A DNA stretch of 64,000 bases from contig NGBS01000030.1 in assembly GCA_002245135.1 (NCBI GenBank), positions 1 through 64,000 on the forward strand. The letters are read 5' to 3'. Below, piece by piece: positions 5,045 to 16,796 of this stretch. Origin of the DNA: Proteromonas lacertae. Lineage: Eukaryota. The notes below the pieces were generated by a model. That model saw only the letters and a list, made by a program, of their open reading frames with translations. It did not search any database and was not told the DNA's origin. A program made the translations under genes and the position numbers. Numbering within the stretch: position 1 is the first letter of the stretch; every line of letters begins with the position of its first letter.

Positions 5045-5071
5045 AATCATAATCATAATCATAATCATAAT
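5045..5071 (+). repeat. (AATCAT)n hexamer microsatellite abutting the stop codon of the giant receptor
   Basis: Direct reading: aatcataatcataatcataatcataat. Confidence 0.8.
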
Positions 5072-8000
5072 TACTGTTTAGTTAAAGTAGCGAATTTATT
5101 CATTTGTGTTTTAGTTTGAGTTGTAAATGTTCTTGACATATTAGTTGTAAACGACATATTACTCAACGATTTGTGAGATGAATTTCTTGAAGTTGAATAA
5201 CTGCCACCAATAGCACTATTTCCACCAGCAGAACCACTTGATGTAACATTCTTTGCATCTTCATCGATATAAATACTCACTAATTTCAAACCATATTGTA
5301 ATACTCCAACTATTATCGCTGTTAAATGAATTCCCATTGATCTTAATAATAAAGCTGAATCTGGTTCAGTACTTACATTAAAATCTAATAATACCATTAT
5401 TGCACCAAGTACTAATATCACTATTGAGGAGATAAACATTCCTAACGAATCATTATGTTCATTTGCAATATTCTTTGTTGAATTTGACATGAATACTAAT
5501 ATTACAGCAGGTAAGAAATCTGTTATTAATTCAATCACTGTAAATGGAGTTGAATATTCACATTCTCTTATTGATACTTCATTGAAATAATTACTATTTG
5601 AAACACTGTAAGTACCTACATATTCATTTGGATCTACTGTAAACCATATTAACAACAATATAGCTTCAAATATCATAAAACCTAACCAAAAACTCAATAC
5701 TCGATATATTGTGATTTTAGTTTTACGAATTGATCCTCTGATTCTTCGATGTTTTTGGTATAATTTTGATTCTGTTGCAAATAATGCCCCAAGTAAACTT
5801 TTCACAGCTAAACCTAATACAACCACTCTTGTAGCACAAACACTATTATCAGAGGCTGGATATAAAGACATTGGAATTGAACTAAATGCTAAAAATATTA
5901 ATGCAATTGCTGTTACAAAGTTATGAGCTCTACCAAATGTACGTATAATACTTTGTTGTCTGTGAATAAATACAAATATTAAACAACTTATTCCAACTAA
6001 CATAGATAATCCCATTAATGTATAACTAACAGCTTCTATTGTTACACTGTATTTATAAAACACTTGATCTTTACCATATTTACATTCATTAGGTAATCCT
6101 TCAGGGTATGGTTCTGGTTCAAATAATGAATTCGATCCTCTTGATGGGAATAATTGAATAAACTTCGCATTACGATTAATTTCAAATACATATGAGTTAC
6201 GAGATACATAGAAAGATTCAGTTACTTTAACTAAACCAGAAGGAACTTCTACTTCTAATCCAATACCAGTTAATTGTAAATATCTTAAAGGAGGTAAGAT
6301 CTTACCTGAATCAGTCACAGCTGTTGGATATAATTCTTCCCAAATTGCAAATGAATCTTTTATTGCTTCGATATTATCATCAATTGCTGTATTTATACCA
6401 ATATAACCTTTAGCATCACTAACAAATGATTGTGAAATTGCAGTTGATAATGATTCTTCATAACCTTGTACAACTAAAGAACCATATATTTGAGATAATA
6501 AATCATCAGTATAATCATTTTTGTCAAAGTTTAAGAAGGTTAATAAAACTTCACGACTATTGATTGAATTGGATATATAAGTATTAATAAACTTCAAACT
6601 AATCTCACCTGTCAAATAATATAATACTGCAATTCTACCATTCTCATCATCTTCTTTTTTCTTCAATATTGTACTAATAGCATCATTGATTTCATTCTCT
6701 GTTCCTTCTTCAATTGTGATTCTAGAAATTGTCTGTTTATTTACAGAGTAGTGTTCTTTTACATAATAATAAACAATATCCCAATTAGTACTCATCAATT
6801 CACTATTATCAGATATAAATATTAAACTATTAATTCCTTGTTTATGAATATATTGTTCAGCAGATAAGAATCTTTGAGAAGCTGTTGTACCAACTGCTAT
6901 TCTGTATGGATAACAACTTTTTCCTTCAGTAAAACCATAATAAACATATAACTTTGAAGTTTCTTTTGCTGCTGATAATGCATTATCCATACAAACACTA
7001 GTTTGACATCCAAAGAATGCTACAACTTCATCATCTTTCAAATATGGTGCTGTTTTATTACCAAATTCATCACTTGTAGCAGCAAATATAAACACTGGTA
7101 CAATATTATAACCATTTATTCCATTGTAATTAATATCTTGAACTAATGAATATTCAATAATCATTGCATTTACTTCTTTCAATTGTGCTTGAGTTGTTTC
7201 ATGGAAGAATATCATTTTCAATGTATCAGGTCTATATCTACTCTCACTAATTGTCCAATCACATTTATATCCTTCATTTTCAGGGAAATTATGAATCCAA
7301 GCTTCGGCTTGTTCTGGATTTGATGCATATTCAGTCACTCTTAACGATTTATCTTCACCAATGATACACAAGTATAAAATTCTGTTAATAATACCAGCAC
7401 CATTCATTTCCACTTTACCAGATGGAGCCATCATTGTATAACCATAGAGTGCTGTTCTTACTTTCTCTGTATCAAATGTCATTGTATAAGCAACAACAAC
7501 ATCAGCCCATAATTTAACAGATGTATAACCACTCTCCATTGCGGCTGTAATAATCACATCTTTACCATATCGATCTTTCATAGTTGATACAAAATCACTA
7601 GCTGTTGATAGATATGTATTACTATCGGATTCTTCTAAACCCATTTCTTTAATAAATGATGTTAATATATAAGCATTAGCCATACATTCAGATGGGATAT
7701 ATTCCATCAAATATCTATCTAATGATATTGATACAACATATGTATTAGTCATGTTGATTTTGAGTGGACATAACCAATTAAATGCTTTATAATTATTATC
7801 TTCAGACACAGCTAAAATAACAGATGAATTTCTATCTAAATTCTTATAATCAAAACTTTCAGGAACTGTTTTAGTTTCTATTATTTCTGTCAAGTTATAA
7901 ACATGTAAATTCAATTGTATCTGATTACATAATGCTTGCAAGGCATTACTAAACTGTAAACTCCACTTAGAATCACCTTGTATAATATATACATTATGTG

Positions 8001-14000: not shown

Positions 14001-16796
14001 CCTATAAATGCTAATATATTACTGTCATTTGCATTCTTTTCCACATAGTCTTTCAATGCAGCAATAGTGTCAAATGTATGTATTGTTCCTTGTAAAAGTC
14101 TTCGGTTTATACCATCATCATTGTTGAAATTGGCAATCATAACATTAGCATAATTGGTATATTCATCAATATAATCTTTAAAATAATTATCAGTAACATA
14201 CAAAAACACAATTTCATAGAATTGAGTGATTGTATCAGTTCCATCAAGCCAAGTGCATCTTTTCTTTATATCCATATAAGCATTAGTTTGTTCAATATAT
14301 AAGGAAGTTGAAACTGATTCGATTTGATTATTAGTTGCATTGATTTTACCTAAATGTAATTCACAGTTGATATTACCTTGTGAATTCCATTCAACTCTTC
14401 CTCCAGGTCCTTCAATACTTCGTGAATAAACAATCATTTGGTTTATACTATCATGATCAGTAGAACGAGCAATTTCAATACTCTATATAAAAATAATACA
14501 ATCAATAATATTTATACATTTGCTAATAAGAATAATGATGAATATGCAAATGCAGTTGTTGCTGTAGTTGTATTATATGATTTTATTACAGACGAATTTA
14601 TCATTCTTCCCTTATACTCTTCAGCTTTAAAAGTATCTAATGAATCAAAGTAATAATTAATAACATAATGACCATCATACTAAATAATAAATAAATAAAT
14701 TTAATATACAATTGTCCAATTAGATTCCATTACAGCTTCATCTAATGTGAATGACACAACAGGTTGATTCTGAGGTGATAATTTGTTATTTTCATTATAT
14801 TTCTGGAAGAATAATGAGTGGTAATCTCTCTCCATTATATTCACAACAATACATCTACCACCTCCATCAGGATCAGCTTTTTCACAAGCACTACTCAATA
14901 ATTGACATGCATTAGCAGCTTGAACTTCAGTATTGGATCTTTCTAAGTAATTATCGATAATATTAAATCCACCAATAGTTTGAGTTAGGTTTGTAATACT
15001 GTAAAATGTATTGGTTGAAAAATAACCAAGTGTTCTTACTATATATAAGTTTGTAATTCCTGTAGTTGTCTTTAAGGTTTGTAAACCATATTTCCATAAT
15101 GAATAAATACTAGCTCCTTACATAGAAATTAAAGAAAAATAAATATATAAAAAAATTAAAAGGATATAGATAAAACATTCTTTCTACAAGTATTACCAGC
15201 TTCAGGTGTAACATGAATATATAAATAATCAATAGTACCATCATCATTCAATAAAGATAGAAAACTATTCATATGTTCAGCTTCAGCAGTGCTAAATATA
15301 CCAACAATATTGAATCTACTTGCATAATTCTTAAATTCGTCAAATACCTCTTGTGGTGTAATAGATAAATCAATATAGATTGGAACTATTGGTTTATTCA
15401 AGACTGGTTTCTATATATAATAATAATATTAAAATGAAAATATAACTATACATTTTTATTAAAATAATCAATAGCAGCAGTAAATGAATTAATAACATTC
15501 TTTTCAAATGGAGCAAATTGATTTTTAGTTATTGTCACTCTATATGTCATTAATGCAACATAAATAACATCAGGCTTGTATGCAGTTTGAGATTCTAATA
15601 CATTACAAATAGTATCTTTTGGTATTCCATTTAAGAATGAATAAGAAACATCAGATGATAAAGTAGTAGTTTGTATTGTATCAGTTTTTATACCACTAGG
15701 ATCACTGTCATCCAATATAGCATTATATACATCAGAAATCAAAATATTACCAGGATTAATACCAAATGTCATTCCATCAGCTTCAAAATTGGCTTGTTTA
15801 TATCCTGTATATAATATATCACTTGTACTTGAAAAATCATTCAGTCTATCCTTTCCTATTTGATAGTATAAGTTAATGTGTTGGTATAAAACTATTGATT
15901 CTAAAGTATAATCTTTATTAGTCAGTTTAGTACCACTATCTGGGTTAGGCATTTTATTTAAAAAATCATTAGTTAATACTAATGCTTCAGATATAATAAA
16001 ATCTCCATTATTATTTGATTCATGTAATACTTTTCCTCTTCCATATACGGGAGTATAAATAAAATGATATTTTTTAACTAGATCTGCAGCAAGACCAGCA
16101 CTATTAATTTTTGTTTTGATTGCAGTACGAATAGTATCTTCTTTTGAAAAATAGTAAATGTCAAATTCATCAAGATCAGCTTGTTTTAATGCATTTATAA
16201 TCTTATCAGTTACTGTATCAACATCTGTTGATTTAGAAATTACCATATCATGTTTATAAGCTCTGAGATAAGTAAAAGCAGTTATTATTCTATCTTTCAA
16301 TTCAGCATTGAGGGTTTCATCAATCACAAAAGCAGTATTAAGGATTGTATTATCATTATTATCAGCAGCTATTTAACATATATAACAAATAATCATTTAT
16401 ACCTCTCAAGAAACTTCTTGTTGTATAATAACCAAGTATAATCCTTGAATAACAAACTTCCACCTCAGTGTTCATAGCGTTCCATACATATAAATTCTGT
16501 TCCTCTGCTATAATATTCAGCAAAGTTATATTAACATCAGAAAGATGAGTAAAAAACATATCTTCACTTGGATGGCCTTTTTTAAACTGTACAATGGTAG
16601 CATTTAAATTATCATCAGTAATAGTAACATGTGGATCGTATATTTCTATTTTAATATCTTGTGACTCATAGTATTTTAGAATCACTTCCATGTCATCTTT
16701 GAGTGAACCAGAAGTAACAAAATACTTAGTTACAAGAGCAGCCAAAGTATTCTCATGAAAGGAAGACCACAGCAAGAGAAAATAGAAAAAAATCAT
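5071..16796 (-). CDS. Giant class C-type (GABA-B/mGluR-like 7tm_3) receptor, ~3,800 aa: signal peptide, nine tandem UrtA/AmiC-like periplasmic-binding domains, 7TM, Ser/Thr-rich tail
   Basis: Eight minus-strand ORFs join through small introns (16369-16402, 15411-15451, ~15118-15176 boundary uncertain, 14680-14709, 14483-14517, 13102-13141, 12735-12775) plus one +1 frame slip near 10437. N-terminus MIFFYFLLLWSSF is signal-like. ~385-aa modules carry motifs such as AVDELNANGGILGKKI, LFYPFLYEGYECSKNIIY and LWYPATSEGQECKENVYYTG. The 7TM has class C hallmarks HRQQSIIR, CATR..LGL...LLGALF, LLIWFTVDP, ECL2 Cys and TKNIANEHNDS. Confidence 0.88.

Follow-up and report, generated by a model that had tools for sequence, protein, structure and literature searches.

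Results

Gene structure

We analysed a stretch of 64,000 nucleotides (nt) from Proteromonas lacertae (assembly GCA_002245135.1, contig NGBS01000030.1, positions 1 to 64,000), referred to below as the window, with a GC content of 22-33% per kilobase. Its minus strand holds a coding frame that runs from an ATG at 16796 to a stop codon ending at 5071 and encodes a predicted protein of ~3,812 amino acids (aa), a frame break being read as X. In order, this protein comprises a likely signal peptide, nine units of ~385 aa, a 7tm_3 domain and a Ser/Thr-rich tail, and the locus is likely to represent one gene for a class C-type G protein-coupled receptor (GPCR). A preliminary description of the same DNA had proposed that eight open reading frames (ORFs) are spliced into one protein of ~3,800 aa. 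The length agrees with ours, but the ORF count gives way to eight exons containing nine coding segments, the extra segment arising from the frame break in the last exon.

The eight exons are separated by seven AT-rich introns of 30-50 nt, six of which have GT-AG ends (all features of the gene lie on the minus strand, and P-numbers denote relatives and orthologues found by the protein search in this analysis). Exon 1 (16403..16796) carries the ATG, the likely signal peptide (~aa 1-20) and the first third of unit 1. The N-terminal ~20 aa are likely to form a signal peptide, as, among the stretches that follow a Met in the ectodomain, this one reaches the highest hydropathy over 9 residues (2.77). 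Intron 1 (16369..16402, 34 nt, GT-AG) is followed by exon 2 (15452..16368), which encodes the remainder of unit 1 and the beginning of module 2 and is 60% identical to the orthologue P0024. At the codon where intron 2 begins (15411..15451, 41 nt, GT-AG), the ORF of P0024 likewise enters intron-like letters. Intron 4 (14680..14709, 30 nt), intron 5 (14483..14517, 35 nt), intron 6 (13102..13141, 40 nt) and intron 7 (12735..12775, 41 nt) are all of the GT-AG type. P0021-P0023 cross the junction of intron 5 in frame; the position of intron 6 is common to P0019-P0022 and that of intron 7 to P0001, P0002 and P0018, and P0025 reads across both. Exon 8 (5071..12734) extends from the C-terminal part of module 4 to the stop codon with one frame break and is colinear with P0001-P0003 (47-55% identity).

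Intron 3 (15118..15167, 50 nt) has a donor of the ATATCCTT type (U12-type) together with a branch-like word, and it has to end in AA for the frame to be kept. A GT donor 9 nt upstream was rejected, since it gives the wrong frame. Module 2 scored 164 bits as a single piece spanning this intron. The available text of PMC10639083 records AT-AA as a non-canonical end of minor introns. Intron 3 is thus likely to be a minor intron of the U12 type, bounded by AT-AA in a gene whose other introns are GT-AG; its exact 3' end is a prediction. The low GC content, the short introns and a likely minor intron would fit the AT-rich Blastocystis lineages described in the text available of PMC12129017, among other protists.

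The frame break (10408..10426) lies inside module 6 and within exon 8; unlike every other junction of the gene, it has no AT-rich intron to explain it. An intron joining the ORFs 12739-10376 and 10479-5071 was rejected, since no AT-rich intron of 25-90 nt joins them; a 13-nt GT-AG intron at the break was also discarded, being purine-rich against the seven accepted introns, which are AT-rich and 30-50 nt long. Ten relatives read through the position, P0001-P0003 in one frame (47-55% identical) and seven more distant ones with colinear alignments, and because they do so the break is very probably an assembly error.

Binding-protein modules

The ectodomain is divided into unit 1 (15584..16742, aa 19-393), module 2 (14234..15583, aa 394-791), module 3 (13060..14233, aa 792-1169), module 4 (11900..13059, aa 1170-1542), module 5 (10709..11899, aa 1543-1939), module 6 (9571..10708, aa 1940-2313), module 7 (8407..9570, aa 2314-2701), module 8 (7234..8406, aa 2702-3092) and the membrane-proximal module 9 (6070..7233, aa 3093-3480). 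Each of the nine module starts given in the preliminary description lies within 12 nt of those found here, and the closing-Cys words it listed (ICDFS, YICNF, YKCDW and YYCEW) are present in the protein. Pairwise identity between window modules is 9-19%. Self-BLAST of the protein gave no off-diagonal rows, and homology was tested by hidden Markov models (HMMs) instead. In leave-one-out comparisons modules 2, 3 and 5-9 scored 38-89 bits, where shuffled sequences (~200 for each module) reached at most 6.9. Module 4 failed this comparison (2.6 bits) and passed once relatives were added, with an hhalign probability of 99.6% and an HMM score of 59 bits, compared with at most 5 for shuffled sequences; it is degenerate yet homologous. 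By these profile tests, the eight modules 2-9 are shown to be homologous to each other.

Unit 1 gave 2.5% in hhalign and 0.1 bits in the HMM test and has no Pfam match. Modelling of its exon 2 portion with AlphaFold2 (AF2), based on two sequences only and therefore uninformative, returned a predicted local distance difference test (pLDDT) score of 41.6 and no fold match. Its only two Cys are 271 aa apart, which agrees with the 254-277 aa of the other eight modules, and C115 is where the central-Cys motif has its best score (P=0.036), two further motifs being without significance. Cys spacing and the weak C115 motif suggest that unit 1 is likely to be a ninth, highly degenerate module. Of the nine modules claimed initially, eight (modules 2-9) are therefore confirmed, and for unit 1 homology was not demonstrated by profile or fold. 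The earlier remark that modules 1 and 4 are the most degenerate fits the HMM scores of both.

The modules resemble UrtA, the binding protein of the bacterial urea ABC transporter. The top Protein Data Bank (PDB) matches of module 8 are the UrtA entries 7S6E (E=1.6e-24), 8HIC, 7S6F and 8TG1, with AmiC at E ~1e-5; modules 2 and 3 are UrtA-like as well. TIGR03407 (UrtA) is the best NCBIfam model (E=1.8e-78), and the three window ORFs scanned reach 264, 76.6 and 54.1 bits with it, all under its cut-off of 492.75. The last ORF scores 263 bits with Peripla_BP_5 and 48.6 with ANF_receptor. The Peripla_BP_5/6 matches correspond to a large extracellular bilobed binding-protein domain, and no match to NCD3G or another cysteine-rich domain was found in the Pfam scan of the gene. 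The HMM scan proposed in the preliminary description thus returned both Peripla_BP_5/6 and 7tm_3, with unit 1 as the part lacking a Pfam match.

An AF2 model of modules 8 and 9 with the seven-transmembrane (7TM) domain, built on a 39-sequence alignment, reached a pLDDT of 91.6 and a predicted template modelling (pTM) score of 0.82, which refers to these two modules with the 7TM only. Foldseek with this model placed GABA-B chains first, and single modules aligned to UrtA at template modelling scores of 0.83-0.85. The UrtA-type fold with UrtA-like termini is accordingly supported by structural evidence for modules 8-9 and by profile evidence for modules 2-7. Structure prediction of the modules, as initially suggested, hence gave a type I fold for modules 8-9, and for the unit 1 region a low pLDDT (~42) without a fold match. 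On this sequence and model evidence, the modules are shown to descend from bacterial UrtA. They share the broad flytrap fold, yet they are not duplicates of the mGluR/GABA-B flytrap, and the Venus-flytrap sensor modules of the preliminary description are, by the PDB and NCBIfam matches, UrtA-derived.

Urea pocket

Eight conserved urea-pocket residues are named for UrtA in the text available of PMC10392092. We mapped them onto the window modules via P0040, an environmental relative described below; the mapping is approximate at ~20% identity to UrtA. Every window module keeps 0-3 of the eight, and by this mapping the urea-binding residues are shown to be lost in all window modules. In P0040, all eight are present in five modules, four in one module and six in the truncated first module, with only three and one of eight in the two modules nearest the membrane, so that the five perfect pockets are all distal. 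P0044, a second environmental relative, has 8/8 distally and 1/8 proximally. For a GPCR that senses urea or an amide, both proteins are strong candidates.

Conservation of the pocket relative to the whole module was compared among seven orthologues for modules 3 and 5-9; modules 1, 2 and 4 were left out, modules 2 and 4 having too few full orthologues. Pocket conservation lies under the module mean in module 9 (0.22 vs 0.38), module 8 (0.30 vs 0.40) and module 6 (0.20 vs 0.31). Module 9 is among the best conserved overall, with poorly conserved pocket positions. In module 3 the pocket is more conserved than the module (0.65 vs 0.37, P=0.006; n=4, one of six tests), which makes it the best candidate sensor. 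Modules 5 and 7 also lie above their means (0.43 vs 0.33 and 0.48 vs 0.36), without significance.

Membrane domain and tail

The class C-type 7TM (5266..6042), recognized by Pfam, AF2 and Foldseek, matches 7tm_3 at E=4.4e-20, with 72.9 bits where the cut-off is 33.5. Between aa 3497 and 3748 there are seven hydrophobic helices, and seven helices are also present in the AF2 model. The domain is followed by a cytoplasmic tail of ~62 aa, assigned by composition (5071..5259, stop codon included), of which 39% is Ser/Thr. The class C-like 7TM and Ser/Thr-rich tail that had been read from the C-terminal region are both borne out. The predicted protein contains 39 N-glycosylation sequons.

The Cys pair linking transmembrane helix 3 (TM3) and the second extracellular loop (ECL2) is kept (C3558/C3650), and the aligned Cys are found in 43/43 other 7TMs. 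The TM3 lysine is replaced by Thr (T3579) in the window and likewise in P0001 and P0018; it is kept in 42/43 other 7TMs examined and in 26/30 family rows. Further changes in the window replace the TM3 Arg by Lys, the TM6 Glu by Asp and the TM7 Pro by Leu. We take TM3 Lys/Arg, the TM6 acidic residue and TM7 Pro-Lys to be intracellular lock and coupling motifs, and these are mostly kept in the paralogues P0030, P0032 and P0038. In class C receptors, the TM3 lysine forms the lock on the intracellular side. With its loss here, the 7TM is likely to be basally active or to pair, as the non-coupling subunit, with a paralogue in which the motif is retained. No G alpha gene was seen within the window, though RGS-bearing and phosducin-like genes are present.

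Relatives of the receptor

A search with module 9 and the 7TM retrieved 164 proteins at E<=0.001. Among the 150 matches listed of these 164, at least 20 one-ORF proteins carry 2-9 modules and a 7TM, so that the relatives with differing module counts anticipated earlier do exist; the counts are minima, most ORFs starting mid-module. P0040 (Logan, environmental) is a single ORF of 3,745 aa that contains 7tm_3 and nine Peripla_BP_5 domains, and P0044 (JGI/IMG, environmental), with 1,598 aa, has tandem UrtA modules and a related 7tm_3. A tree of 122 modules groups those of the window's relatives according to their place in the array, numbered from the membrane outwards, and it puts most P0040 modules together near one- and two-module UrtA-like matches. 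Since modules group by position across relatives, the tandem array is judged to be old. The close family has an amino-acid composition of the AT-rich type, unlike that of P0040 and P0044, which suggests that the latter two come from higher-GC genomes. One-to-one ancestry of the P0040 and window module positions is unsupported (P=0.47). The window-type and P0040-type arrays probably expanded separately, and their common count of nine may have arisen by chance.

A metagenome scan gave 202 pattern matches with no relative among them. Four matches of the protein search (P0068, P0072, P0128 and P0158) are ~1,500 aa long and have a UrtA-like module at both ends and no 7TM; in P0068, HEAT repeats and a weak NB-ARC match lie between the two modules.

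Neighbouring genes

A second receptor-like gene lies at 27329-30402 on the minus strand and falls outside the UrtA-module family grouping. Its large ectodomain appears binding-protein-like by eye, with no Pfam match in that part. Hydrophobic helices follow, and at the C-terminus there is an RGS domain whose coding sequence is interrupted by an intron (Pfam E=7e-5 and 0.039); the gene is likely to encode a 7TM-RGS fusion. A third GPCR-like gene (47998-49578, minus strand) has a Frizzled-type cysteine-rich domain (E=4e-5, below the cut-off) followed by a hydrophobic multi-helix region. The domain scan further identified genes for a phosducin-like protein (44796-45428, minus), a YbaK-type tRNA editing domain (17233-17799, plus), AMP deaminase (18986-20119, minus), a GH47 mannosidase (40131-41048, plus), CLPTM1 (42927-43859, minus), Exo70 (54186-55979, plus) and glutamate-cysteine ligase (59411-61194, plus), which we regard as ordinary eukaryotic neighbours.

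Discussion

The window encodes what appears to be a class C-like receptor made of one chain, in which type I binding-protein modules form a long tandem array, as the preliminary description had recognized; the AF2 model, the Foldseek matches and P0040 as a second example agree with this architecture. We propose that the eight, likely nine, UrtA-derived modules work as an extended stalk: one or a few of the distal modules would respond to a ligand that is not urea, and the membrane-proximal modules would only relay the signal. We assign this reading a probability of roughly one half. Most likely, a UrtA gene was fused to a GABA-B-like 7TM and then underwent tandem duplication. The early form would have resembled P0040 and P0044, sensing urea or a small amide with several intact distal pockets above a proximal module without ligand. 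In the AT-rich lineage the pockets would then have eroded, while every position retained a conserved surface particular to it. With short linkers and a single pair of Cys in each module, the chain would be semi-rigid and, judged from module size, tens of nanometres long, with module 3 as the best candidate sensor and modules 8-9 as a relay.

Several points weigh against this proposal. The splice junctions are sequence predictions; introns 1, 3 and 4 are spanned by none of the relatives, and within the window's orthologue group no single relative extends over all of units 1-9. Unit 1 yielded nothing in profile tests, and the pTM value covers only two of the modules. The module 3 signal comes from four sequences and one of six tests, with positions mapped at ~20% identity to UrtA, and the above-average pockets of modules 5 and 7 would also fit several sensors. 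P0040 is to be seen as an analogue of the ancestor and not as the ancestor itself. Finally, ligand, G protein coupling and dimerisation are predicted properties only.

A more tentative extension, which we consider somewhat less likely than not, is that a hitherto undescribed branch of class C receptors stacked up to nine or more captured copies of UrtA. P0040 and P0044 would then be multi-site receptors for urea or amides, and the stack of the AT-rich protist would be an antenna on the 50-nm scale, relaying from a distal module via ligand-less ones. We know of no GPCR for this ligand class.

It is also conceivable, if unlikely, that no module binds a small molecule any longer and that the array, in contact with macromolecules or surfaces, exerts a pull on the 7TM in the manner of a mechanical lever, spacer or tether. 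The loss of the urea pocket in all modules, pocket positions that are not better conserved than average in 5/6 modules tested, the position-by-position conservation of whole modules and the abundance of N-glycosylation sequons would all be expected of such a stalk, and the proximal Venus flytrap (VFT) of the bacterial sensor BvgS is described as closed and ligand-free in the text available of PMC4352136. The conserved pocket positions of module 3, however, argue against this reading, and the 44-68% identity per position among close orthologues is not obviously needed by a purely structural stalk.

The preliminary description had proposed nine ligand-binding clamshells, possibly as a multi-ligand nutrient antenna; most modules would then bind a nutrient of their own, each with a re-tuned pocket. 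In favour of this, the positions have each diverged separately and are conserved, modules 8-9 have an intact fold in the model, and modules 3, 5 and 7 exceed their means in pocket conservation. The homologues of BvgS with up to five VFTs have, moreover, been proposed to integrate signals (PMC4352136, text available). Yet the urea pocket is lost in every module, pocket positions of modules 6, 8 and 9 vary freely among orthologues, below the module average, and modules 1 and 4 are strongly degenerate, so that we regard this explanation as rather improbable. The alternative offered at the time was a stalk in which only the membrane-proximal module gates the 7TM; as the sensing module, the proximal one would be at odds with P0040 and P0044, in which it is degenerate and the intact pockets are distal.

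The frame break could be real in this isolate, which would make the gene a recent pseudogene or yield a secreted protein of ~2,050 aa without a 7TM, in a family that is intact elsewhere. Translation of the assembled sequence does stop at aa 2,049, and the window is 13 nt longer here than the orthologues P0001 and P0003 imply, an excess beyond a typical homopolymer slip. The remaining coding sequence (11.4 kb) is nevertheless free of further stops or breaks, and the module tree shows no lengthening of the window's branches, including those of modules downstream of the break. Three more breaks that are not introns occur in the same window, none of them proven by a homologue. We thus consider a real lesion improbable. 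These other sites are overlapping coding frames without an intron near 2,790, 35,165 and 60,990 (all plus strand), two of them beside short homopolymers, which suggests indel errors of the assembly. The break in the glutamate-cysteine ligase gene is no proof of such an error, since it falls beyond the end of the Pfam profile.

That the locus consists of independent head-to-tail genes for secreted binding proteins and a shorter receptor is very improbable: the one-transcript structure is predicted from sequence alone and units 1-2 connect to the remainder only via predicted introns, but module boundaries all lie inside exons and junctions all inside modules, orthologue ORFs bridge units 1-2 (P0024), modules 2-3 (P0019-P0023) and modules 3-9 with the 7TM (P0025, a single 3,012-aa ORF, colinear at 29% identity), and no internal start is followed by a hydrophobic stretch exceeding that of the true N-terminus.

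Among known receptors, GABA-B subunits (PDB 6W2Y, 6WIV, 7CA3) are similar to the window protein in their 7tm_3 domain, TM3-ECL2 Cys pair and ECL2 hairpin (seen in the model for the window), and in carrying a type I binding-protein module on a short linker to TM1 without a cysteine-rich domain. They differ in having one ANF_receptor-type flytrap per subunit, as stated in the text available of PMC12716839, in place of 8-9 modules of the UrtA subfamily; identity over the structural match is 13-14%, and the window clade lacks the TM3 lysine and the TM7 proline. The protein thus falls outside the GABA-B, mGluR, CaSR and T1R subfamilies, which are defined by a single ANF_receptor-type flytrap with or without NCD3G. 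UrtA (TIGR03407; 7S6E, 8HIC, 7S6F, 8TG1) and AmiC (1PEA) share fold, module length and the central and closing Cys motifs with the window modules. UrtA itself, in contrast, is a soluble single-domain bacterial protein, to which these modules are ~20% identical with 0-3 of the 8 urea residues. P0040 and P0044 share the tandem UrtA modules and a related 7tm_3 but have near-canonical UrtA modules with intact pockets and canonical 7TM motifs. The best functional analogy is provided by the BvgS/EvgS sensor kinases, which, like the proposed receptor, place tandem flytraps above the membrane; in the available text of PMC4352136, the distal flytrap of BvgS is mobile and the proximal one closed and free of ligand, and homologues reach five VFTs. 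They are, however, bacterial histidine kinases and not 7TM receptors, and the likeness drawn here is one of function.

Animal class C receptors have one sensing module per chain, and diverse ectodomains occur on non-animal ones (both from the text available of PMC12716839). Glutamate-class GPCRs of non-animals combine a bacterial-type binding protein (Peripla_BP, Bmp, OpuAC) with 7tm_3, and the architecture '/Peripla_BP//7tm_3/' is listed in PMC3971589, whose available text gives no copy numbers, UrtA ancestry or tandem arrays. A term search of the main text of PMC5608401 found no mention of GPCRs, and the text available of PMC8687355 does not mention tandem arrays. No paper was found on Peripla_BP_5 combined with 7tm_3, and the tandem-flytrap literature retrieved concerned bacterial sensors, trypanosome cyclases, one GABA-B paper and unrelated items. 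Titles and abstracts revealed no UrtA-derived or many-module class C receptor, most subscription papers and the domain list of PMC12716839 being outside the scope of the search; within that scope, the earlier statement that no known receptor has such an architecture still stands. We consider the protein a real and surprising variant of class C GPCRs, in a setting where bacterial-type binding domains on 7tm_3 are already known from non-animals.

In the present family, natural receptors carry up to nine sensing-type modules from a separate bacterial donor. The family raises the question of how far a clamshell signal can travel along a chain before it reaches the 7TM, and of how binding modules become relays, for which both states are at hand, eroded pockets in the window and intact ones in P0040. 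A candidate urea-sensing GPCR is readily available in P0040. Should the host be a gut protist, these receptors would rank among its largest surface sensors.

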